From contig DDYE01000017.1 of NCBI GenBank assembly GCA_002347855.1, positions 188,839 through 252,838 of the forward strand: DNA of 64,000 nt. Reading direction: 5' to 3'. This document shows, piece after piece, positions 6,493 through 58,447 of the stretch (position 1 is its first letter; every line of letters begins with the position of its first letter). This stretch comes from Fidelibacterota bacterium UBA2242 (GTDB lineage: Bacteria; Fidelibacterota; UBA2242). Below the pieces are notes generated by a model. That model was not told where the DNA came from and did no database searches. It worked only from the letters and a program-made list of their open reading frames with translations. The position numbers and the translations under genes were made by a program.

Positions 6493-8724
6493 ATGATAAC
6501 AAAAATAAAAATTGAGAACGTAGCAACTTATAAAGAAGCCTTAGAAATTGATAATATAAAGAAAGTTAACTTTTTCTACGGTAGTAATGGTAGTGGTAAA
6601 ACTATTTTATCAAAACTAATTGCTAATTCAGATTCATATAGTGATTGTAATATTGAATGGCAAAATAATACAAAACTAAAGAGAATTGTTTATAATGAAG
6701 ATTTTGTTAGGTCAGTTTTTTACCAAAACGAAAATTTTCCGGGTATTTTTACTATGGGAGAGGGAGCAAAAGATATTGAAGTGCAAATCGACCAGAAAAA
6801 TCAAGAAAGGGAAAAAATTCAAAATGAACAAACGAGTTTAAATAATACACTGAAACAAAAAAAGGTAGAATTAAATAATAAATCAGATGAATTTAAAGAA
6901 TTATGCTGGAGAAAAGTATATCAAAAATATCAAGATGATTTTACTGAAGTTTTCACAGGGTACCGTAATAACAAAAAAAATTTTGCTGAGCGTTTATTGA
7001 ATCAGTATGAATCAAATGAATCAGTATTAAGAAAAAATGAATACCTATTGGACCTATACAATCTTTTATTTAAAGAAGAATTAAAATCGATCAATCTATT
7101 AAATTTAATTTCAGATGAAGTGATTAAAGAACTACAAAAATTGGAGACAAATGAAATATTAAAAACCGAAATAATCGGAAAGAAAGATGTTGATATTGCT
7201 CGAATGATTGAAAAATTACACAACCATGATTGGGTAAGACAAGGAAAGAAATACTATGAAGAAAATTATGATGAAGAGAAAGGCTCTTATATATGTCCTT
7301 TTTGTCAGCAAGCAACAACAGAAGATTTTAAACAAAAACTTGAAGAATATTTTGATGAAACTTATGAAAAACAAGTAAAACAATTAGATGAGTTTATAGA
7401 AAAATATAACGAACTAAATAATAAATTGAATAAATACTTTGATGATTTATTAAATACTAAAGATAATAAATATTTTGATGCAAAAAAAGATGAATTAAAA
7501 AGCCAAATTGAAATCATTAAAGAGAAATTGAAAAACAATATTTTTCTGATAAATAAGAAAAGGGACAAGCCCAGCGAGGATATATCAATAGAATTTTTAA
7601 CTGATGTTATAGGTGAATTAAATAATTTGATTAATTCTATAAATGAAGAAATAAAAAAATATAATGAAATTGTAAATAATCAGCAAAATGAAAAAAACAA
7701 ACTTATTTCTGAAATATGGAAATTTTTCTGCAATGAAATTAGTATGGATATTAAAAGTTATTTGAGTGGTAAAAATAATATCGAGAAGGCGATAGACGAT
7801 ATCAAAAAACAAGTTGAAGAAAAAGAGACCAAAATAAAATGTATTACAAATGAAATATCAGAATTAGAAAAACAAATTAAAAGCATAAAACCAACAATTG
7901 ATGCAATAAATAAAGTTTTAGATAAGTTTGGTTTTAGGGGATTTAAATTAGCTCCAACTGAAGATGAAAAACACTATAAAATTATTAGAGAAGACGAGAC
8001 TTCTGCAAAAGAAACATTAAGCGAAGGAGAAAGAAACTTTATTGTATTTCTTTATTTTTATCATTTAATTCAAGGAGCATTGAATCCAGAAGAAAATATA
8101 AACGAACCTAAAGTCGTAGTTTTTGATGATCCAGTTTCAAGTCTTGATTCTGATGTATTGTTTATTGTAGCAACTTTAATTAAGGGTATTATAAAAGACA
8201 TAAGAGAGGGAAAAGGAAATATCAAACAGGTTTTTCTTTTAACACACAATGCCTATTTTCATAAAGAAGTCACATATTCATCAAGTCGGGATTATGGTCA
8301 AAATAAAAGAAATGACACAATGTATTTTATTATTAGAAAAGTAAACGGGATAAGTAAAATCGAAGAATATGAAACAAATCCCATTAAAACCACTTATCAG
8401 TTATTGTGGGATGAAATAAAAAATGGAAGAATAGACTGTGTATCTCTTCAGAATTCAATGCGGCGTGTTATAGAATTTTATTTTAATACATTGGCTGATT
8501 TAAAAGAAGAAGAGTTAATAAACAAATTTAACAATGAAACAGATAAGAAAATTTGTCGTTCATTAATTACCTGGATTAATGTTGGTTCGCATGATGCCTT
8601 TTTTGATATTGATTATTCGCCAAGTCCAGATGAAATTTCTAAATATAAAGATATATTTAAAAAGATATTTGAAGAAACTGGTCATATTTCACATTACAAT
8701 ATGATGATGGGGATTCCTGAATAA
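6493..8724 (+). CDS. AAA_13-type ABC ATPase, RloC/PrrC-like (putative anticodon nuclease)
   Basis: AGGAGG RBS at 6483-6488; Walker A GSNGSGKT (6580-6603); long coiled coil with CPFC zinc-hook-like motif (7294-7305); ABC signature LSEGE, Walker B VVVFDDP, H-loop LLTHN; C-terminal R-x3-E (RRVIE) followed 39 aa later by H (VGSHD). Confidence 0.6.
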   Translation: MITKIKIENVATYKEALEIDNIKKVNFFYGSNGSGKTILSKLIANSDSYSDCNIEWQNNTKLKRIVYNEDFVRSVFYQNENFPGIFTMGEGAKDIEVQIDQKNQEREKIQNEQTSLNNTLKQKKVELNNKSDEFKELCWRKVYQKYQDDFTEVFTGYRNNKKNFAERLLNQYESNESVLRKNEYLLDLYNLLFKEELKSINLLNLISDEVIKELQKLETNEILKTEIIGKKDVDIARMIEKLHNHDWVRQGKKYYEENYDEEKGSYICPFCQQATTEDFKQKLEEYFDETYEKQVKQLDEFIEKYNELNNKLNKYFDDLLNTKDNKYFDAKKDELKSQIEIIKEKLKNNIFLINKKRDKPSEDISIEFLTDVIGELNNLINSINEEIKKYNEIVNNQQNEKNKLISEIWKFFCNEISMDIKSYLSGKNNIEKAIDDIKKQVEEKETKIKCITNEISELEKQIKSIKPTIDAINKVLDKFGFRGFKLAPTEDEKHYKIIREDETSAKETLSEGERNFIVFLYFYHLIQGALNPEENINEPKVVVFDDPVSSLDSDVLFIVATLIKGIIKDIREGKGNIKQVFLLTHNAYFHKEVTYSSSRDYGQNKRNDTMYFIIRKVNGISKIEEYETNPIKTTYQLLWDEIKNGRIDCVSLQNSMRRVIEFYFNTLADLKEEELINKFNNETDKKICRSLITWINVGSHDAFFDIDYSPSPDEISKYKDIFKKIFEETGHISHYNMMMGIPE

Positions 8725-17536: not shown

Positions 17537-20245
17537 TTATTTCATCAGCAGTATTCTCTGGTTCGCTGTGTATTTTGGTGAAATCATCCGCACCAGATAA
17601 ATACCACTGACAACACTTGCCCCGGAATGATTGACGCCATTCCAGGTAATCGTGTAGTTACCCGCGGCATAACTGGTTTTAGTACTCCGCCAGATTTCAC
17701 GACCGGTCAGGTCGTATATACTGATTTGAACGTCAGATGCTTCCGGTAAAGCAAAACTGATGTTCGTTGTAGGATTAAACGGATTGGGATAGTTCGGTTT
17801 CAATTGATATTTATCCGGCAGAATGTCTGCCGTAGCAGGCGGAGCCGGTTGCTTCCCGAATGCGATTGGTTTGGCCAATTGCCAATCGACGGTTTCACCC
17901 ATTTCGAACTGCGCCATTTGGGTCAGACTGTAATCGGCATATTTGGCTTTCAACTGGTTTAAGACTGCCTGCGCCTCTTCTCTATTCCCCAGGTCAATGG
18001 CGTAGATATTGAAAAGGGTGAAGAGGGCTTTGTATTCGGCTTCTGAATCCGGATTCTCGCTGATCACGGTTTTTGACTTTTCGACAGCGGCTTTGAATCG
18101 CTTGCTGGTAATATCTTCACTAATCAATAACTCCAGCGCCATGGTGCGCAGATTCTTCGTACCGACATATTTCTGCAGATGCTCTTTTAGGTCGGTACTC
18201 TTCAATGCTCTTTTAGCAAAAACAGAACGTAGAAATGCCAGCGGGGCGTAGGGTGAATCGGGGTAATTCTGCAAGAGAATATTACAATTCTCTAATGCTT
18301 TGCGATATTGCAGGCTCTGCCAGAGTTCAGTCGTCTCCCGCCAGAGGGTTTCCACCGATTCTGCATCATCAAAAGGTAAGATGTTGATGTTTAAAGCCTC
18401 GGCCAGTAAACCGCCAAGAGTCTTCGCCAGACTGCTACCGCCGCCGGGATCACTGCTAAGGGGATAACGGTTATCAATGCTGGATGTGCCATCGGCATAA
18501 AAATCACTCGGCGGATAATCGCCCCAGAAATTCTTCTGGGCAATGATATTGGAGTAATTTTCTGCCCGGATATGGGCAAACTTATCTGTTGTAATGTCTA
18601 AATATATAGTATTATACCCGGCGTAACCATCCGAACTGAAACACGTTCCCAGGACTGATTCACTATGATCGTGGGTGTATACGGTTGCTGTTTGACCACC
18701 GATTATCCGGTTGTAACCCTGATAATCCTGAGAGCCCGGACCGATTGCCAGTGGACGGCTGTAATGGTCGGCGTCCAGCCCGTAGGTGAAACTGCCCTCG
18801 ATGGTATTGTTGTAGACGCTTGGTTCATCGGTGGCATAAACCTGAATCCCGGCTACTCTGGTCGAGCCACCGGAAGTGATCAGATTGTCGGTCATATCCG
18901 ACAATCCGGCGTAATAACCATAGATGCCACGTGTACAGGCGGTGATGGTATTTGTATTTACAACAGCGCTGTTCGAATTATTCAGATAGGCGCCGTAAGT
19001 GCAATTGCTGATCGTGTTATTGCTCAAAGTTGGAGAACCATAATAAGCATAGACGCCATAAGAACAATTGCTGATGGAGGAGTGACTGATTGACAGACTA
19101 CTGCTACTGGCATAGACGCCATAAGTAGCATTGCTGATATTGGCATACTGAATTGAGCCACTGCTGCCGGATTGATAACGGATTCCGCCCCAGGTGCCGG
19201 AGGAAGCGGTGTAAGTTGAATTATAAGAATTCAGTGTTCCGTAGACGTAGAGATATTTCCCGGATGCGAAAATCATTTGGGTATTGCTTTCGGTTTTGAG
19301 GGTTTTGCCGGAGGGGACGGTGAAATGATCAGCAAAGTTGTGCGTTCCGCGAATATGTACCGATTGCCCGCCGGAAGCGGCAGAGAATGCCGCGCTGATT
19401 GACGGATAGAGTCCATTAATAGTGGAACCGGTCTGGAGACGGATGTCGGGATTGAGGGTGGCGCCGTTTTGAATAGTGATCGTACCGTCTGTGGTTGTTA
19501 TGGTGTGGGAATTGAGATTGACGGTGGCTTTAGACTTTATTTGCAGATTACCACCAGATGGAACAGATACGTTTCCTATTATAGTATGAACCTTGCCACC
19601 TGATCCTATCCATGTTTTGGGATAATTCGAAAGTGTTCCGTAGTGAATAGTTTTGAGTTTTTTAAAATCATGTCCAAGGTTTTGTTTTAAATAATAACAA
19701 TCGTGATTTTTTTCATGTTGATATAATCCACAAGCTCCCCATTTGGAAACGTAGTCTCTACCACCTTCTATAGGACGTGGATAAGAATTTTGAATTTTTC
19801 TAACTGAGTGGTCATCATCTGTATACCATGAATGAGTTGCTTCAAATTCTGAAGCTGTTAAATATGATGGTTGTCCATCATTAGACCATGCCCCATCAGT
19901 CCAATAATAAGTTTCAACATCGTGATCTTCATGGGTTCCAATCCATACTTGTTCGTTCCCTTCAGAAACACTCCAGGCATAACCATGACAGTTATAGGTA
20001 TTGGAAGCGTTTCCAATTAGTACAGCATTTAGTTGATATGGTTCTATATAATAGTACTGTATATACCAGTGGCACCAAGCTATTTCACCATCAGACATCT
20101 CGGTTGGTGTATCAGCAGGAACAGGTCTTCCTTCAGGTGTCCTGACAATTGTATCTCCTGCAAATAAAATATTCTGAAATAGAAAAATAAATAATGTTAA
20201 GAGAAAAGCATATTCGTATATAATTTTATTAATTTTAACATACAT
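17537..20245 (-). CDS. secreted right-handed parallel beta-helix repeat protein with T9SS C-terminal sorting domain
   Basis: signal peptide; repeated NxTIxxCxYGxY beta-helix units; C-terminal KPNYPNPFNPTTNISF...IYLVRM T9SS CTD. Confidence 0.8.
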   Translation of the reverse strand: MYVKINKIIYEYAFLLTLFIFLFQNILFAGDTIVRTPEGRPVPADTPTEMSDGEIAWCHWYIQYYYIEPYQLNAVLIGNASNTYNCHGYAWSVSEGNEQVWIGTHEDHDVETYYWTDGAWSNDGQPSYLTASEFEATHSWYTDDDHSVRKIQNSYPRPIEGGRDYVSKWGACGLYQHEKNHDCYYLKQNLGHDFKKLKTIHYGTLSNYPKTWIGSGGKVHTIIGNVSVPSGGNLQIKSKATVNLNSHTITTTDGTITIQNGATLNPDIRLQTGSTINGLYPSISAAFSAASGGQSVHIRGTHNFADHFTVPSGKTLKTESNTQMIFASGKYLYVYGTLNSYNSTYTASSGTWGGIRYQSGSSGSIQYANISNATYGVYASSSSLSISHSSISNCSYGVYAYYGSPTLSNNTISNCTYGAYLNNSNSAVVNTNTITACTRGIYGYYAGLSDMTDNLITSGGSTRVAGIQVYATDEPSVYNNTIEGSFTYGLDADHYSRPLAIGPGSQDYQGYNRIIGGQTATVYTHDHSESVLGTCFSSDGYAGYNTIYLDITTDKFAHIRAENYSNIIAQKNFWGDYPPSDFYADGTSSIDNRYPLSSDPGGGSSLAKTLGGLLAEALNINILPFDDAESVETLWRETTELWQSLQYRKALENCNILLQNYPDSPYAPLAFLRSVFAKRALKSTDLKEHLQKYVGTKNLRTMALELLISEDITSKRFKAAVEKSKTVISENPDSEAEYKALFTLFNIYAIDLGNREEAQAVLNQLKAKYADYSLTQMAQFEMGETVDWQLAKPIAFGKQPAPPATADILPDKYQLKPNYPNPFNPTTNISFALPEASDVQISIYDLTGREIWRSTKTSYAAGNYTITWNGVNHSGASVVSGIYLVRMISPKYTANQRILLMK

Positions 20246-20261
20246 GACAAAACTCCTTCAA

Positions 20262-20873
20262 TTAATATGTATTTAGAAATTCTTTTGCTTTTTGAATAAC
20301 GAAATTAAGGACCTCGTTATTTTGCAATCGTCCGGTTTTTAACAAGTGCCTTACACCTGGTGATTCAGACAAATCCATTGAAATACCATTATCTTTTCCT
20401 TTGGATTCTAATAACCTTGCAATCGAAAAAGCATTATATTGTATGCCAAAGATGGAGAAAATTTCAGGATGATGAATTTTAAGTTCGTTTTTCTTTAACA
20501 ATTCATTTAAGAGTATTTTTATCTCTGATTTTTTCAGTTTATCAAGAATATTTTCATGTGAGAGTAGGACTTCAATAAAAACAAAGGAAAAAGTAAAAGC
20601 CCCTTTCTTAACAGGTTCCCAATTCACATCATATGTAGATGGATCCATACTTTGGTAAAATTCAATCAATTTCTGTCCGGCATCCTCTCTCTTTACTAGT
20701 TCACGTAATCCATTAAAATCATTATATTCGCGTTCGAAAGCAGCATGAATATCATTATAAATAAGTAGGTAACCAGGATAGCGGCTATTCAAATATTCCT
20801 GAATCAACTCCTCGGTCGGCATAATCGAGAGAGTTGCCTTAGGAATCTGTTCTGCTGCTTTTATTTCATCCAA
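20262..20873 (-). CDS. hypothetical protein; probable true start is the ATG at 20980 (AGGAGG RBS) but that requires a +1 shift in the T8 tract at 20930-20937
   Basis: ORF as given starts at TTG; upstream mini-ORF MKTKKKNSFFFLIVIFFTSL is signal-peptide-like and out of frame by one. Confidence 0.5.
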   Translation of the reverse strand: MDEIKAAEQIPKATLSIMPTEELIQEYLNSRYPGYLLIYNDIHAAFEREYNDFNGLRELVKREDAGQKLIEFYQSMDPSTYDVNWEPVKKGAFTFSFVFIEVLLSHENILDKLKKSEIKILLNELLKKNELKIHHPEIFSIFGIQYNAFSIARLLESKGKDNGISMDLSESPGVRHLLKTGRLQNNEVLNFVIQKAKEFLNTY

Positions 20874-21006
20874 TGGTTTCCCTTCTCTTTGTTCTTGTGC
20901 ATTGATCTTAAAACCACTTATAAAGACGTAAAAAAAATAACTATAAGGAAAAAGAACGAATTCTTCTTTTTTGTTTTCATAGCGACCTCCTAATTAATCT
21001 TATTAA

Positions 21007-22017
21007 TTATTTAATCTTACCATAACGAAGAATAACTCCTTCTGAATTTGCATTTACTGGTTGTACTCCCACTGCCCATCCCAAATATTTATTGATAAAA
21101 CATAAAGAAGCGATATTATTCACATTCATCTCTCCTGGAAGATACTCCCATGTTAGTCCACCATCTGTTGTTTTAATAATTGCATACTTTCCTGCTCCCG
21201 GATTAGTGGCTAACCATCCGTTTAATGGATCGACAAAAAATAATTCATTAACACCTAAAGATGGTGGCCATGATTCTGCTGATCTCTGAATCCATGTATT
21301 TCCCCCATCAGTTGTCCGAAAAAATCCAAGCCAATCGTTATCATTACCTCCAACCCACCCATGGAATTGATCCACAAACTGAATTGATGTTAAATATGAA
21401 ACGTATGGCACGTTTAACTTTCTTATTGTCCATGTTAGTCCAATGTCTGTAGTTGATAGAATTGTTCCGCCAAAACCACACACCCAAATATTTTCTTCAT
21501 CAACTATCGAAATATGTGTAAGAGTATGTACATCTTGAGGTGCTACATCTTGCCAAGTTTCTCCTCCATCCTCAGTTTTAAGCAAAATACCAATACTACC
21601 CAAATCTCCTCTACCCCCTACAACAAAACCGGTGTTTTTATCTAAAAAATTAATATCACGATAACGTCCGCCTTTTAAATCATCATTGTATCCTAGCTCC
21701 CAATTTTTTCCACCATCTATTGTTTTTAAAATGGAATACCTCCCACAAATCCAACCGTTATTCTTATCCACAAAATCGACCGCAAATAAAGTCTCATTAA
21801 CCGGGCTTATCTGATTACCCCATGTTTCGCCCCCATCTTCTGAATTAAGAATTAGACCACTATCTCCAACGACCCAGCCATTATATTCATCTACAAAATC
21901 TACATCATATAACCTTGCCGTTATCCCGCTTTTAATCTTGGTCCAGACATATATCTCATTATAATTACTTATATCTTTACCACATCCAAAGATGATTATT
22001 AAACTAATAAGACACAT
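21007..22017 (-). CDS. BNR/Asp-box repeat protein (Ycf48-like beta-propeller), probable lipoprotein; ORF extends to 22158
   Basis: repeated DGGxTW motifs (DGGETW, DGGKNW, DGGNTW, DGGLTW); lipobox-like IFGC near likely start. Confidence 0.7.
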   Translation of the reverse strand: MCLISLIIIFGCGKDISNYNEIYVWTKIKSGITARLYDVDFVDEYNGWVVGDSGLILNSEDGGETWGNQISPVNETLFAVDFVDKNNGWICGRYSILKTIDGGKNWELGYNDDLKGGRYRDINFLDKNTGFVVGGRGDLGSIGILLKTEDGGETWQDVAPQDVHTLTHISIVDEENIWVCGFGGTILSTTDIGLTWTIRKLNVPYVSYLTSIQFVDQFHGWVGGNDNDWLGFFRTTDGGNTWIQRSAESWPPSLGVNELFFVDPLNGWLATNPGAGKYAIIKTTDGGLTWEYLPGEMNVNNIASLCFINKYLGWAVGVQPVNANSEGVILRYGKIK

Positions 22018-22222
22018 CAATTTATATTTATAAGACCTGAAATGATTAAGAATAATTTGAAAATGGTTACTGATATTAAGAAAAGTATCCATTTGGTATA
22101 GTGGCTGTAGTATTGGTTCAGCGGAAACGCACTTCGCCATTTTCACACTGCCAGCCATCTTAGAAATTCCTTTTCATAACGTTGCCATTATATTCTTATT
22201 ATAAACAATACATAGTAGGAAA

Positions 22223-24916
22223 TTAAAATTCAAGAAAAATTTTCCAATTTTTCTCTGATAACGCTCTAAACGACTTGATTGTCGCTGTTCCGCCGCCAGT
22301 GATCCAGTTATAACCCTGGTAGTTCTGCCCGCCCGGACCGATTGCCAGCGGACGGCTGTAATAGTCGGCATCCATCCCGTAGGTGAAACTGCCCTCGATG
22401 GTATTGTTGTAGACGCTTGGTTCATCGGTGGCATAAACCTGAATCCCGGCTACTCTGGTCGAGTCACCGGAAGTGACCAGGTTGTCGGTCATATCCGACA
22501 ATCCGGCGTAATAACCATAGATGCCACGTGTACAGGCGGTGATGGTATTTTTATCGACAATTGCGTTGTTGGAGTTATATAGATATATGCCATAAGTGCA
22601 GTTGGAAATGGTATTATTCCGGATTGTGGGATTGCTATAATAGGCATATAATCCATAATTCGCATAAGAAATAGTTGAGTTCTCGATGATACAATTTCCA
22701 TCAATTGCCGAATAATAGAAACGGATACCCCACCAGTTACTGCTGCCGGAGCGGGTGAAAGTGGTGTTATTGCATTTAAGACCACCCACAACTCTTAATT
22801 GTATATTCGATCCAAAAGACAAATTGCTGTTATTGAATTCAAATGTAATTCCCGATGGGATAGAGTAATTTTGGCTGAAGGAGATGGTCAGATTATTTGC
22901 GTAAATTCTGTTTCCGCTGGAGGCATCTGTTAGAGCGGAAGCAAGGGATGGATATAAGCCTTTTATCGCCGTTCCATCATACAGGCGGATGTCGGGATTG
23001 AGGGTGGCGCCGGCTTCGACGATGATTGTGCCTCCAGCAGAGGTGATATTATAACCGTTTAGATTTACCGATGCACCGGAACGAATATTAAGTGTCACAC
23101 CGCTACTCACGGTAACATTTCCTATGACAATTATGGTACCGCCCCACGTAGTATTCTGTGAAATAGTACCGGATACACCGTGTGCATAGTTTAATGAAGG
23201 GTCGCCCAAAATATTATACTTTTCAAAATAATCTTTTGCTGTATATTCACTAATTGGATAATAATTGAGAAATTTGATTTTTGCCTCTACCGTCATTTCC
23301 CCAAATGAAGTTTTAATATCATCATATATTGAGGAAAATAAACATTTTTCAAGACGATCATCTGGATACCATTGAGTTGGTCTTGACGAACCCCAAAATC
23401 CAACCGCAGCTTTGTTTGATTCTCTCAACCATGTCTCCCCAAAACATTCACTTCCGTAATCAAATTTACCTGTTAGACATGCAAAACTGAAAATCAGGGG
23501 AAGTTTATAACTGTTGGTTAAATTCCGCACTTGACTCTGAGACAACGGTGGTCCATCTGCCCAAGATGTTTCCGAACCATGTCCGGAATATACCCCAAAT
23601 ATTCTACCGTTATTAAAAGCATTGATCACCTGTGTTGTAGTAGCATTGTAAGTATGACAATATAGTTTATCACTGGTATATCCTTCCGGATCAAGGTAAT
23701 TTGAAATTACATTATTATGAGTTCCTTCGGAAATAGTATAATTATCATTGCTGGCCATAAATACTGCTTTTTTAATCCAGTCAAGTGTACTCCAGTCTTG
23801 GGTCTCATAATCAATCTGTTTATTTACAATGTTGCTTAACTGGGTTGTCGTTTCAACAGAAAATCTGCCAACAAATACATCCGGGAGCCAATCACCATCC
23901 ATCAAAGAATACTTCAAGTCAGATGCTGTATTGCAATAATCTCCTGTAAAGGTGGGAATGTATGCCACATCTCCTACCAGAAGTACATTTTCAACCGGAG
24001 GATCCCAATTGTTATAGGCATTGATGATATAGTTTCTTATTCCATTTGCAGTCTGATCTGCCAAATCGGATTTTTTTACCACCGTTACATCGAATCCCAA
24101 ATTCTCTTTATGAGAGGCAAAAGATGAAATTGTATTGTAAAAATTATCATGACAGATTATTAAAAAAGTGCTCGGCAATTCAGTTGCTGTTTTCATTAAA
24201 ACTGCACTCTTTTGAGATTTATTATTGAAGGAAACGGAATTAACTATTTGATCGAATAACTCTGATTGATACCTTCTGATTTCTAACTGTGTGGAAGATG
24301 ACTTATCGGTATTAAAATACAATTTAAAAGTCACGTTAGTATAGACTTTAAGTTTAGCTTGTACTGGATTGTATTGAATCGGAAATACCGTTATTTGATA
24401 AAGGTTGTGTTTTCGCAATAAACCCAAATCTGTAATTTCGAAAATATTATCAGGATAATATTTGTCAGTTTTATAAATATCATCATCAAATTCAAAGGGT
24501 TTATACTCAGGAGTTTTGCTGACAGGATACTGCAACGGATAAATTTTTGTCATTCCTTTTTCCGCAATATTCAGTTTTTCAACAGTACTGGAAATAATCT
24601 CCACCATTGGATTTGCGTCGTAAGGAAGTTCAACTATTTTTCTGAATACCGGTAGCTGAGGTTTACCTAATTCCGTCGTACTCATACCATCCTCAAATGT
24701 CAATTTAGAGAATATACCATTTTCTGTTTCCAAACGCTCAGAGTAAAAATCATCGACATTGAACTGAATAATGATTTCACCTTCTGATTCAGACAGCACT
24801 TTGATTTCCGTTTTAGGATTGCTCACATCACTAAGCAAGATTTTCTGTTTTGATTCTTGCGCTAATACAAGGGATAATGAAATAAGAATAACAAATGAAA
24901 ATCGTTTGAGTTTCAT
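22223..24916 (-). CDS. peptidase C25 (gingipain-like) family protein with C-terminal parallel beta-helix repeats; lacks a T9SS CTD
   Basis: signal peptide; catalytic-type His (VYSGHGSE) and Cys (FSFACLTGKF); beta-helix region nearly identical to 17537-20245 paralog. Confidence 0.75.
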   Translation of the reverse strand: MKLKRFSFVILISLSLVLAQESKQKILLSDVSNPKTEIKVLSESEGEIIIQFNVDDFYSERLETENGIFSKLTFEDGMSTTELGKPQLPVFRKIVELPYDANPMVEIISSTVEKLNIAEKGMTKIYPLQYPVSKTPEYKPFEFDDDIYKTDKYYPDNIFEITDLGLLRKHNLYQITVFPIQYNPVQAKLKVYTNVTFKLYFNTDKSSSTQLEIRRYQSELFDQIVNSVSFNNKSQKSAVLMKTATELPSTFLIICHDNFYNTISSFASHKENLGFDVTVVKKSDLADQTANGIRNYIINAYNNWDPPVENVLLVGDVAYIPTFTGDYCNTASDLKYSLMDGDWLPDVFVGRFSVETTTQLSNIVNKQIDYETQDWSTLDWIKKAVFMASNDNYTISEGTHNNVISNYLDPEGYTSDKLYCHTYNATTTQVINAFNNGRIFGVYSGHGSETSWADGPPLSQSQVRNLTNSYKLPLIFSFACLTGKFDYGSECFGETWLRESNKAAVGFWGSSRPTQWYPDDRLEKCLFSSIYDDIKTSFGEMTVEAKIKFLNYYPISEYTAKDYFEKYNILGDPSLNYAHGVSGTISQNTTWGGTIIVIGNVTVSSGVTLNIRSGASVNLNGYNITSAGGTIIVEAGATLNPDIRLYDGTAIKGLYPSLASALTDASSGNRIYANNLTISFSQNYSIPSGITFEFNNSNLSFGSNIQLRVVGGLKCNNTTFTRSGSSNWWGIRFYYSAIDGNCIIENSTISYANYGLYAYYSNPTIRNNTISNCTYGIYLYNSNNAIVDKNTITACTRGIYGYYAGLSDMTDNLVTSGDSTRVAGIQVYATDEPSVYNNTIEGSFTYGMDADYYSRPLAIGPGGQNYQGYNWITGGGTATIKSFRALSEKNWKIFLEF

Positions 24917-24934: not shown

Positions 24935-26028
24935 TTACCAATTACCATGGGGTCCACCGTATGCGCCCATATCGTTACGGCTGCCGTCATGGTCGTTATA
25001 TTGTTCTAAAGGATTACCGGCATCTATACATGGTGAATTGGGAAGTAAGTGAAAATCTTCCATAGTAAAGTCAACGAATTTCGGATTGGTATTTAAATTG
25101 CCCTCTCCAGGCCAACCATTTTCAATACATGAATAAGTAATATTGAGCTCTGTAACATAAAAGGAGTCAATTTTAACCTGGGAGTTTTCATTGCCCCAGA
25201 GAATATTATTTGTAACATTATCCTTTCCTAATGGTTCCATTCCGACATATAATCCCGCATTGGCGTTGTAGCATATTATATTATTTTCAACCAAAGGTTT
25301 AGGTTTCCCTATTGTTATTCCATTGAATGTATTTTTAATAATAATATTGTTTCTAATCACTGGTTGTAAATAGGCAAGTCCGTCAAATGCCCATGTATCT
25401 ATTCCAGTAATACAATTTCTAATAATATTATTTTGCACCAGGGCTTCAGAATTTTGCAAACAAATACCAAACCCTTCGAAATTTTGAATCAGATTATTCT
25501 GAATTATGATGCTAGAATACCAACAAGTTATACCCATGGCAAGGACCCTACTTTCAATATTATATATCAGCGATGCGTACTCAACTCTGGAAAAAGAAAT
25601 GATAGAGCTACTGTCTGCGGTTTCAGAGAAGTAAATACATCCCCAGTTGTGATCTGACGCTCTTGTAAATATTATTGGATCGGTTTTTGTCCCCTCGGCT
25701 ATGAGTTTGCCATCTACTCGTAAAAATCCAATGTCTATTGTCGAATCGATCCAGTCAAAATCGGCATCATTTATAGTTCCTATCTTGCCCGATTTAAATT
25801 TAATCGTAACACCAGGCTCAATAACAAGCATTTTACCTTGCGGCACGCGGGCAGCACCATCTATATAAAAAGGAGAATCACTCTTCTTAATTGTTCCCCA
25901 TAAATCCTGATATAGATTGTATTCAATATATAAATTGTCTTCATTGTTGATGGGATTCTCTTGACATGCGCCAAGCGTTAGCAAGATTCCCATTAATACT
26001 GTCAGTATCGTTTTCGGGATCATTATCG
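24935..26028 (-). CDS. parallel beta-helix repeat protein, probable lipoprotein (ORF extends to 26149; likely start MIPKTIL...)
   Basis: beta-helix repeats (NNIIRNCITG..., NNIICYNANAGLYV...); signal peptide with LGAC. Confidence 0.7.
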
Positions 26029-26378
26029 TTTCCTCCGATTTGTTGTATTGCCTCAAATTAAAGTTCAAAATATTCCCTTCCACTTTGTTAGACAAAATCA
26101 TCATTCTTAGCGCAATCCCTCCTTCTTCCATTTGCTCAGGAAAAGACAACTACTCGATTTTCCTCGCTTTTTTCATTGAAGACTCTATTTGCTTCTGGCA
26201 TAATATATACACTGGGGGGGTAATGTCAAGAGATTTTTTTAAATTTGGAAAGTTTCAAGACATGGTATCCAGTTGGCAAGCATAAATTGGCTTAAGATCA
26301 TCTTTTTGAGGAGTTAAAGATTTTGATAAAGAGAGTTAGGGAAGTCTATGGGATCGAAATGCGAGCTTTCTCGAGTAG

Positions 26379-32383: not shown

Positions 32384-33754
32384 ATGTCAAAGCTCAAATT
32401 TGTACTTTTTTGCGTTGCTCTGGTGGCGCAGCTTTTCGCCGCTGAGTACGAAGTAGATTATGCCGTTTTTCGTGGCTCTGAAGGTATGGACATCGTAGAA
32501 GTGTATTTCTTAATGCCCCGCAATATGTTCAAATTTGTCCCCACTGCCCAGCAATATCAATCGCACGGTTTCATCCGTACCGCCTTGATCCAACAAGATA
32601 GCGTGGTTGATATTGTGGAATGGGATTTCATTGACCAGGTGCGGGATACATTACAGGTTACCAGTGAACAGAAAATACCGGAAATCGCTACTCTTCAGGC
32701 GAAGCCAGGAACCTATCAACTGGTCACTATTGTGGCTGACCTGACGACTCGCCAGCAAAAAAAAGTGAGTAAACAGCTGATATTGCGGGATTTTGGAACG
32801 AAAGATTTATGTCTGAGTGATATTCAAATCAGTGGTCAGGTAGATAAAACCCGTCAGCAAAATCGTTTCAGCAAATATTTTGGGTATGACATTATTCCTA
32901 ACGCCTCGACCATTTTTAACGAAAGCTACCCGGCGATTTATGTCTTTTTTGAGGTCTATAACCTCGGGTTTGATAAGACCCAGCCCGGTGAATATAAGGT
33001 AAAATACGCGGTCACGGATTTGAACGGGGAAGCATTGCAGGCACAGGATTGGCTTACCCGCCCAAAACCAGGTAAATCAGCGGTCGAAATTAATCAAGTA
33101 ATGATAACAACTTTGCCCGCCGGAGTATACGACCTGAAAGTCGAGGTCAAAGATGACGCAACTAATCAGCAAGCCAGCATGAGTAAGCGTTTTCGGCTGA
33201 CACGCGACAGGAGTCGTCAACCTGCCACTCCTCAAGTAGGACAAGACTTACGCCTCGAAGGTCTGACTGAAGCCGAGCTGGATGAAATCTTTGGTCCATT
33301 GAAATACATTGCCAAGAACATAGAAATTCAACGTTATAAGAAGTCTGATTTAGAAGGAAAACGCCAGATTATCGCGCACTTTTGGGATAGCCGCGACCGC
33401 GATCCTTCGACTTTAATAAATGAATCAAAAATAGAATTTGAAAATCGCTTAGCCTATGTCAATCAGCAGTTCACTACCCCGCGGATTAAAGGTTGGCGCA
33501 CTGATTTTGGGAGAGTCTATCTAATGTACGGACCACCGTCCGAAATCGAGCGCTATCCCAGTTCGCTGGAACGCAAGCCTTATCAAATCTGGCATTACCA
33601 TGAAGTCGAGGGCGGTGTCATTTTCGTATTTGTAGATAAGAGTGGTTTTGGACAATACGAATTGGTTCACTCCACTGCGCGGAGTGAATTGCAAGATACG
33701 GATTGGCAACGCTGGGTTGAGCCCAATGCCAGTCAGAGTAATATCCAATGGTAA
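32384..33754 (+). CDS. GWxTD domain-containing protein
   Basis: signal peptide; C-terminal GWRTDFGRVYLMYGPP motif. Confidence 0.75.
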   Translation: MSKLKFVLFCVALVAQLFAAEYEVDYAVFRGSEGMDIVEVYFLMPRNMFKFVPTAQQYQSHGFIRTALIQQDSVVDIVEWDFIDQVRDTLQVTSEQKIPEIATLQAKPGTYQLVTIVADLTTRQQKKVSKQLILRDFGTKDLCLSDIQISGQVDKTRQQNRFSKYFGYDIIPNASTIFNESYPAIYVFFEVYNLGFDKTQPGEYKVKYAVTDLNGEALQAQDWLTRPKPGKSAVEINQVMITTLPAGVYDLKVEVKDDATNQQASMSKRFRLTRDRSRQPATPQVGQDLRLEGLTEAELDEIFGPLKYIAKNIEIQRYKKSDLEGKRQIIAHFWDSRDRDPSTLINESKIEFENRLAYVNQQFTTPRIKGWRTDFGRVYLMYGPPSEIERYPSSLERKPYQIWHYHEVEGGVIFVFVDKSGFGQYELVHSTARSELQDTDWQRWVEPNASQSNIQW

Positions 33755-56906: not shown

Positions 56907-58447
56907 AATAGTTGTCGCTCCTCGCCTTCTCTGATTACTATGATGCCGGCTTCACCATTAAGCGGGCATTTATTTTCGCAAATACCGCAACCAATACACA
57001 AATTTTCATCAACTTGCGGATATAAGACTATGCGCTTATTGCCATTGAGAGGGTCAATATATTCCTGGGGAATGACCTTAATAGCCTTATCGGGTAACGG
57101 GCAGTGTTCTTCACATACCAGACAATTTTCGTTGACTCGATAGGGAATACAGCGCTCTTTCAGGAAAATGGCTTTGCCCATTTTGACCTTCTGCTTTTCG
57201 GGCAATGCCAGCGGCTGGATTGCCTTTGTTGGACAAATCTGTCCACAGAGATTGCAATTGTACTCGCAATATCCATAGCGAAATTTTGCCAGCGGAGTAA
57301 GCAAACCTTCCCAGCCTGTTTCTAAGAAAGCTATTTGCAAACATTTTCCGGAAGTAGCGCAAATGCGAACACATTCACCGCAACGAATACATTGCGCCAT
57401 GAATTCATTTTCAGTGATAGCACCCGGTGGCCGAATCAGGCGGTCGGAATGGTGTGAATCCGGCTGATTGATTTTGAAGAAACCTGCTCCAATCAGACCA
57501 CCGAGCGTCGCGCCTAAGAAACCACGTCTTGAGAGGTCAATCTTACTGGTCATACGCCCTGGCGATTGCCAGTCATAAGTAATCGCAGCGGGCGGACATT
57601 GCGGTGCACAACTCAGGCAAAGGATACATTCGGATTTCTCGGTGATGTAGAAATCTTCCTCAATCGCAGCCATTTTACATTTGCGCCGACAAATGCCACA
57701 TTTAGTGCACAGGTTCTGGTCAACGCGCCGTTGCAAAGGACTCAATTTGGCAATTAAGCCGAGTAGTGCTCCTAAGAGACAAAGATGACGACACCAGAAC
57801 CGTCGTGTCAGATTGCTGAGTGCGAGGATTATCACCAAAATCAATACCGGGAGAAGCAAGTTGGTAAAAACCGGACTGGCAACCGGGAAAAGATAAGCGT
57901 TGAGCCGATCCTGAAAATTCATTAAAGTTTCCGAGAATATTCCCAGCTTAATCAAAATCGCCAGACTCGTATCAACCAGGAGAAAGAGGAAAGAGAGAAC
58001 AATAACACCCGAAGAACGCCACAAGAGCGGTAGCGGATCCATTAACCAGCTGTACTGAATTCCCAACAGAGCCAGCACGACAAATAACATCAATAAGCCC
58101 GTCTTGACGCTTCGCCAGAGTGGATTTATTTTTTTTAAATGCTGAGTAAAGATTTTGTCGTTTAAATCTATCACTGTTCCAAGAGGACAAACCCAGCCGC
58201 AAAAAGCCCGTCCCACGACGAAGGGCGAAAGCAAAACAATGAGAGCCACCAGAAAGATTAAATCGAAGTGACGATTGGCGATGAGCGGCATAGTTGCACT
58301 CAAGGGATCTAACCACAAGAACAATTCGGGCGGCAACCAGGGCTTAAAAGGATATGTGGCTTGCAAAATTGTAATTATGAAGACAAGAAGGAAAACAACC
58401 TGGACAAATTGCCGAAGGACTCTAACAGTTGTTAAGTTAAAAATCAT
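56903..58447 (-). CDS. membrane-bound polyferredoxin, NapH-like N-terminal domain fused to NapG-like C-terminal domain
   Basis: FCGWVCPLG motif, TM helices, two ferredoxin Cys clusters, internal SRRGFLGATLGGL twin-arginine-like segment, then four further CxxCxxCxxxCP clusters. Confidence 0.7.
   Translation of the reverse strand: MIFNLTTVRVLRQFVQVVFLLVFIITILQATYPFKPWLPPELFLWLDPLSATMPLIANRHFDLIFLVALIVLLSPFVVGRAFCGWVCPLGTVIDLNDKIFTQHLKKINPLWRSVKTGLLMLFVVLALLGIQYSWLMDPLPLLWRSSGVIVLSFLFLLVDTSLAILIKLGIFSETLMNFQDRLNAYLFPVASPVFTNLLLPVLILVIILALSNLTRRFWCRHLCLLGALLGLIAKLSPLQRRVDQNLCTKCGICRRKCKMAAIEEDFYITEKSECILCLSCAPQCPPAAITYDWQSPGRMTSKIDLSRRGFLGATLGGLIGAGFFKINQPDSHHSDRLIRPPGAITENEFMAQCIRCGECVRICATSGKCLQIAFLETGWEGLLTPLAKFRYGYCEYNCNLCGQICPTKAIQPLALPEKQKVKMGKAIFLKERCIPYRVNENCLVCEEHCPLPDKAIKVIPQEYIDPLNGNKRIVLYPQVDENLCIGCGICENKCPLNGEAGIIVIREGEERQLL

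Follow-up and report, generated by a model that had tools for sequence, protein, structure and literature searches.

Organization of the locus

The analysed window, a stretch of 64,000 nucleotides, carries on its minus strand a gene for a putative secreted protein in which the beginning and the body of the coding sequence lie in different reading frames. The gene, its signals and its two neighbours are arranged as follows.

21007–22158, minus strand: upstream neighbour, encoding a BNR/Ycf48-like beta-propeller protein (Pfam PF14870, E = 8e-31)
20985–20990, minus strand: Shine-Dalgarno (SD) sequence AGGAGG, 4 nt 5' of the ATG, read directly from the letters
20980-20978, minus strand: start codon ATG of the leader ORF
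20918–20980, minus strand: short leader ORF of 20 codons and a TAA stop (20920-20918), encoding MKTKKKNSFFFLIVIFFTSL
20930–20937, minus strand: run of eight T on the coding strand (T8; A8 on the plus strand), within which the frame breaks and which is the sole coding-strand T8 in the window
20930–20936, minus strand: U_UUU_UUU heptamer in the zero-frame register AT[U] UUU UUU ACG, the codon register being that of the ATG at 20980
20262–20929, minus strand: gene body in the -1 frame, comprising the end of the putative signal peptide (..YVFISGFKINA, followed by QEQ) and a predicted all-alpha mature domain
20262-20873, minus strand: 203-aa ORF from TTG 20873, the first canonical start in the body frame
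17537–20245, minus strand: downstream neighbour, encoding a beta-helix/TPR protein of 902 aa that carries a C-terminal T9SS sorting domain (Pfam NosD, Por_Secre_tail, TIGR04183)

Read on the minus strand from 21000 to 20860, the sequence runs through TAATTAGGAGGTCGCT into ATG AAA ACA AAA AAG AAG AAT TCG TTC TTT and continues with TTC CTT ATA GTT ATT TTT TTT ACG TCT TTA TAA. The AGGAGG, the ATG at 20980 and an ORF that ends past the T8 run had all been reported in a preliminary description of this DNA, and the reading and its translation bear them out. The same description placed the body in the +1 frame; however, the distance from the ATG to the first start of the body (20980-20873 = 107 = 3x35+2) puts it in the -1 (= +2) frame. 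The two frames can be joined by one inserted base or by a -1 ribosomal slip, and insertion of one T into the run gives an uninterrupted ORF of 239 aa that extends to the stop at 20264-20262. In the restored protein, peptides N-terminal to Leu36, the residue encoded by TTG 20873, include QEQREGKPLDEIK and EGKPLDEIK, the latter from the region between the putative cleavage site and Leu36. Between the body-frame stop at 20996-20994 and TTG 20873 there is no ATG, GTG or TTG in the body frame. Because no canonical start lies 5' of TTG 20873, a product started independently in the body would be devoid of a signal peptide.

Comparison with orthologs

A protein search with the T9 translation yielded 27 matches. 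The best of these was the 203-aa signal-less gene call, which is 100% identical, whereas most of the others are 236–245 aa long and share 44–74% identity with the query over a full-length alignment, most of them covering 100% of it; apart from the truncated form, the search retrieved no match above 74% identity. Twenty-five orthologs of 236–245 aa are colinear from end to end with the 239-aa restored protein, so that the single-T repair put forward in the preliminary description holds. The family is represented in MAGs labelled Caldithrix, KSB1 (Zhuqueibacter), Ignavibacteria and Neomarinimicrobiota.

An alignment of 26 rows was constructed from the query, the truncated 203-aa call and 24 homologs. 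Nearly all full-length members start with an n-region rich in Lys, followed by a hydrophobic stretch and a conserved ..A-Q motif; in the window the signal-peptidase site probably lies between INA and QEQ. The leader ORF can be aligned with the N-terminal ends of 23 full-length orthologs, and corresponds to the n-region and the greater part of the h-region in the ancestral signal peptide. In the ortholog loci a GGAGG or GGAG is spaced from the start codon as in the window gene.

At the run itself, the protein alignment pairs I-F-F-Y-V-F-I-S of the window with I-L-F-C-V-I-N-S of the closest ortholog (L005), and the underlying codons of the T9 reading, ATT TTT TTT TAC GTC TTT ATA AGT, pair with ATA CTC TTT TGT GTT ATC AAC AGT. 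The zero frame 5' of the run matches the ortholog signal peptides, and from TAC onwards it is the -1 frame that matches, codon by codon. Since homology to the orthologs switches frame exactly there, the frame change can be pinned to the T run. The ortholog alignment in this way corroborates the proposal that this is a frameshifted gene for a secreted protein, broken inside a homopolymer.

A comparison with orthologs had been suggested as a check in the preliminary description. In all nine ortholog loci inspected the homologous codons contain only T4–T6, in frame, and the genes are single-frame; the long run is not conserved. Because the orthologs have T4–T6 in frame, both the long run and the break are specific to the lineage sampled here. 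A T6 ancestor, which would imply a gain of two bases, was considered and set aside: T9 is preferred since a single step leads from it to T8 and no gap is needed in the alignment with the orthologs.

The body of the gene has been well preserved. Its identity to the aligned orthologs is 48–78%, and all 18 family-invariant residues are kept. Counts of unique changes in relative-rate comparisons (14.9 vs 11.6, 12.5 vs 17.2 and 16.3 vs 16.6) reveal no excess specific to the lineage, and no signs of decay, be it extra stops, lost invariant residues or faster change, were found in the 203-codon body. This leaves two possibilities, a recent deletion or continuing selection on the gene. In the absence of secondary decay a pseudogene, if it is one, must be very young.

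The AF2 model of the body (pLDDT 93) suggests that the uncharacterised protein is an all-alpha solenoid. Neither Pfam nor NCBIfam has a family for it, and a PDB profile search returned only noise (E >= 0.095). From its context, the function may be described no further than as that of a secreted helical-repeat partner of a T9SS cargo cassette.

A conserved three-gene cassette

The BNR/Ycf48-like propeller gene is located immediately 5' of the ortholog in every locus examined, and in all but one of the seven distinct ortholog loci a large gene for a beta-helix or T9SS-tailed protein follows 17–19 nt downstream; in the window the 902-aa gene begins 16 nt past the stop of the frameshifted gene. 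The exception is the locus found in L011 and L012, where 310 nt separate the ortholog from a downstream gene without a recorded family. The cassette (17537-22158 on the minus strand of the window, and loci L005, L007, L008, L009, L011 and L013) consists of a propeller, a putatively secreted 237-aa alpha-solenoid and, usually, a beta-helix protein with a T9SS tail. It is conserved over MAGs of several FCB-group phyla. In the Ignavibacteriales MAG (L013, 5739-8083) the beta-helix gene is present as two overlapping ORFs of 680 aa and 115 aa, the latter with Por_Secre_tail (overlap 7736-7781), and this may be another frameshift.

Several further observations concern the neighbouring genes. The N-terminal ~200 aa of the 902-aa protein (19800-20150, minus strand), located upstream of the beta-helix, have no family match and contain an N-C-H-G-Y-A-W motif and later His/Cys residues, which may resemble the active site of a papain-like enzyme or an amidase. 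A 303-nt direct repeat, 90% identical between its two minus-strand copies, is shared by this gene (18705-19007) and a C25-peptidase gene of the same operon (22302-22604). Reciprocal swaps of three bases between the copies were seen at 18867/18880/18884 in L002 and L016 and at 22464/22477/22481 in L017, and reflect either ongoing gene conversion or assembly chimeras. The C25 (gingipain/PorU-like) peptidase ORF (22223-24916, minus strand) ends ~20 codons past the shared repeat and is devoid of a T9SS sorting domain, while the paralogous protein with which it shares the repeat goes on for ~400 aa with TPR repeats and the sorting domain; the 3' end of the peptidase gene may be truncated or recombined.

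A promoter-like site close to the consensus (TTGACA, 16 nt spacer, TATATT) is present at 26200-26229 on the minus strand, 5' of a 404-aa gene (24935-26149). No terminator-like site was found on this strand from there down to 17000, and for this reason the frameshifted gene is probably inside a long operon. An untranslated stretch within such an operon could have polar effects.

The T8 run in public copies of the locus

The 203-aa product is recorded as P0001 and, with M for L at the TTG, as P0028, in 18 contig records altogether. We retrieved 11 public loci, from four JGI metagenomes, three NCBI assemblies (GCA_002327805.1, GCA_029216095.1 and GCA_029216075.1) and four Logan single-run assemblies, one of which represents a contig seen in 11 samples. 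All 11 have T8. The T8-bearing cultures and samples come from at least two sources: a methanogenic benzene-degrading consortium (PMC10190668) accounts for two samples, one assembled from Illumina data only and one as a PacBio+Illumina hybrid, and another is from a petrochemical wastewater pond in Alberta (PMC10159854).

The 11 copies are effectively one clone, their sole differences being the three-base swaps between the two copies of the 303-nt repeat, and the word fixed is accordingly used here for one lineage at the consensus level. The three SNPs of L002, L016 and L017 were considered as the mark of a second sub-lineage, which was rejected when they were recognized as reciprocal swaps between the repeat copies; the argument that two diverged lineages share T8 was dropped with it.

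ORFs cover 92.5% of the window, and 28 other A/T runs of 7–8 bases lie inside them, none of which has been shown to break a gene. Given this and the high ORF coverage, the assembly is not prone to homopolymer errors. A crude scan with one-base insertions and deletions flagged one of the 28 runs (A7 at 7653-7659) as a candidate for ORF extension. This window-wide scan was insensitive, missing the T8 target and producing trivial end extensions, and was superseded by a table of tracts by ORF.

Frequency and length variation of A/T runs

The window contains seven A8/T8 runs, whereas 25.7 +/- 7.6 are expected from dinucleotide-preserving shuffles, a depletion of ~3.7-fold. The longest run is of 8 bases; none reaches 9. 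In-frame A8 runs are present at 6973-6980, 32757-32764 and 58129-58136. Among coding-strand runs of at least 7 bases inside ORFs, 24 are of A and 4 of T, and no intact gene has a coding-strand T8. The excess of A over T and the depletion of A8/T8 are consistent with selection against slippage-prone T runs. The presence of a T8 is by itself no more than expected by chance; what is non-random is that the frame break falls exactly within it.

Variants of tract length were sought through a protein-indexed collection, and its ~15 billion proteins include neither the exact T9 product nor the exact T6 product. Searches of metagenome_contigs with a variable-length tract pattern and with a fixed 36-mer 3' of the run returned no matches, nor did a search of genome_contigs with the 36-mer; the organism is apparently absent from both.

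Slippage potential of the run

A -1 slip on the U_UUU_UUU heptamer would yield ...I F F Y V F I S..., identical to the product of a T9 allele; without the slip, ribosomes meet the zero-frame stop at the fourth codon after the heptamer, three codons lying in between. The heptamer, which is in register, is the one element of a programmed -1 frameshift site that was found here. No stimulatory structure was detected downstream (fold of 20945-20840, -14.7 kcal/mol, z = -0.51), no GGAGG-like upstream stimulator was seen between the start codon and the run, and the two-frame arrangement and its site are absent from the relatives (nine of nine inspected ortholog loci). Programmed recoding at T8 is not supported.

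Slippage of the polymerase or the ribosome on this heptamer was not among the possibilities raised in the preliminary description. U_UU.U_UU.U is shift-prone in E. coli, whose genes are depleted of UUUUUUU whatever the frame (PMC4066793). The RNA polymerase of E. coli slips at runs of at least 7 T, and a -1 gfp reporter was rescued at T8 to ~10% of the in-frame control (PMC6260861); the T8 of the window, on the coding strand, exceeds this E. coli threshold of 7 T. In many bacteria, counter-selection against A/T runs sets in at a length of ~9, and some IS elements seem to make productive use of 8-A runs (PMC1088944). Since the heptamer is in register and the run is over the threshold of the E. 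coli polymerase, it is plausible, by analogy, that a minor fraction of full-length protein is made from the T8 allele.

Origin of the frame break

That the true sequence is T9 and the gene intact, T8 being a sequencing or assembly error as the preliminary description had offered as an alternative, is extremely improbable. Homopolymers are the commonest sites of indel errors and one added base mends the gene, but T8 recurs in all 11 loci across assemblers, platforms (Illumina and the PacBio+Illumina hybrid), samples and cultures, and essentially none of the 28 other runs of 7–8 bases within ORFs disrupts a gene. An 8-base run is well below assembler k-mer sizes and within the accuracy of Illumina sequencing, and it is very unlikely that the same error arose repeatedly here. 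We also regard as highly improbable an independent translation of the body from TTG 20873, which would yield a 203-aa cytoplasmic protein whose function is either retained or new. Public gene callers annotate exactly this ORF, and a weak SD-like GAAGGG is suitably spaced 6 nt upstream of the TTG. However, this string encodes the conserved Q-x-G-K motif and is sufficiently explained by coding, the TTG corresponds to an internal Leu (Leu36) of the mature region of orthologs that are made with a signal peptide, and a protein that evolved for the envelope would be unlikely to work in the cytoplasm.

Two further explanations give the run a role. If the locus were a phase-variable contingency locus, slipped-strand mispairing would toggle T8 (off) and T9 (on) and switch the secreted protein within the population, with polarity that might extend to the downstream T9SS cargo gene. 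The run is a homopolymer placed within the part of the gene that encodes the signal peptide; T8 breaks the frame, which T9 or T6 would keep open; the body shows neither interruption nor decay; and the product is predicted to be secreted or surface-exposed from the signal-peptide-like N-terminus of the orthologs and the T9SS-cargo neighbours. Against this stand the lack of any length polymorphism among the 11 loci (at the consensus level, all T8) and in the ~15 billion proteins, T4–T6 in the orthologs, and the depletion of A8/T8 in the window, where no run is hypermutable in length or over-represented. Contingency tracts of poly-A/T are moreover usually longer than T8, and at a length of 8 such runs mutate far slower than the poly-G/C runs of typical contingency loci. 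Switching of this kind is possible but not probable, and the earlier characterization of the arrangement as classic phase variation is unsupported. Recoding as the normal mode of expression, in which T8 would be functional and deliver a set full-length fraction through transcriptional slippage (+1 U) or -1 frameshifting, and would tune stoichiometry within the operon, is in our judgement unlikely. The exact register of the heptamer, the ortholog-like -1 product, a run above the E. coli polymerase slippage threshold (PMC6260861), the apparently productive 8-A runs of some IS elements (PMC1088944) and the intact body are in its favour; but the site is unconserved, the examined orthologs being in frame with T4–T6, it is accompanied neither by a downstream structure (z = -0.51) nor by an internal SD-like element 5' of the run, and known programmed cases are conserved among relatives.

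The explanation that we favour, with moderate confidence, is a recent, fixed T9-to-T8 slippage deletion that detached the signal peptide from its protein, possibly with low-level rescue by slippage. Most likely, replication slippage removed one T from a T9 run in the Phe-rich h-region of the signal peptide, and the T8 allele would then have become fixed in the single clone sampled by all public datasets. Ribosomes initiating at the strong SD and ATG terminate after 20 codons, and the secreted protein would be largely lost, making this an 'off' or hypomorphic allele. To judge from the E. coli data, a minor full-length fraction may be rescued by one U inserted by RNA polymerase or by a -1 ribosomal slip. 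Reversion to T9 by replication slippage is mechanistically possible, and nothing indicates that switching is a regulated strategy. As in a frameshift pseudogene, the frame is reproducibly disrupted relative to full-length orthologs; signs of relaxed selection were not found, and an intact body without relaxed constraint is equally compatible with a gene that is still functional, recoded or switching.

Relation to known systems

Homopolymer contingency loci are known with poly-G in Campylobacter, Haemophilus and Neisseria and with poly-A/T in surface-protein genes of Helicobacter and Mycoplasma. As in these, the run in the window lies in the 5' part of the coding region, within the signal peptide, and a one-base change decides production; unlike them, it is an A/T run of only 8 bases, invariant in 11 copies, not conserved in orthologs and not enriched. 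Genes with poly(A) tracts in insect endosymbionts carry frameshifts that are rescued by transcriptional slippage; a paper on Blochmannia vafer appears to belong to the same context. The frameshifted tssM of Citrobacter rodentium is reportedly rescued in the same manner (PMC4256274), and disrupted ORFs with 9A/9T runs were described by Baranov et al. 2005 (PMC1088944). The window gene resembles these genes in being a conserved gene disrupted by an indel within an A/T run, where one base added by RNA polymerase would restore the ancestral protein, but its run is of 8 bases, compared with 9–11 or more in most documented cases.

With -1 frameshifting of the dnaX and IS3-family type (X_XXY_YYZ; PMC4066793) the locus shares a heptamer in register, an early zero-frame stop and a -1 frame that continues the protein; it differs in lacking both a downstream hairpin or pseudoknot and an SD-like stimulator 5' of the site, and in being unconserved among orthologs. 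Finally, a single indel at a mutational hot spot, recognized against full-length orthologs, is what is seen in an ordinary frameshift pseudogene, from which the window gene differs in having no extra stops, its invariant residues kept and a normal substitution load.

Implications

A homopolymer indel in a single lineage is a common and well-known event, and current understanding is unchanged by it. For annotation, the 203-aa 'hypothetical protein' (P0001/P0028) is what remains, without its signal peptide, of a secreted protein of 239 aa, and its records should carry a frameshift flag. The T8 site is a clean and reproducible place at which slippage in replication, in transcription and on the ribosome might be measured in an uncultured community member. 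It is doubtful, yet conceivable, that T8 is the working form of the gene, with a fixed minority of slipping events supplying the protein at a low set ratio to its two operon partners, or that it acts as a slow on/off switch; to our knowledge, neither slippage-set expression nor such a switch has been described in uncultured FCB-group anaerobes. The frame break also draws attention to an uncharacterised three-gene surface cassette that is conserved over Calditrichota, KSB1 and Ignavibacteriota.
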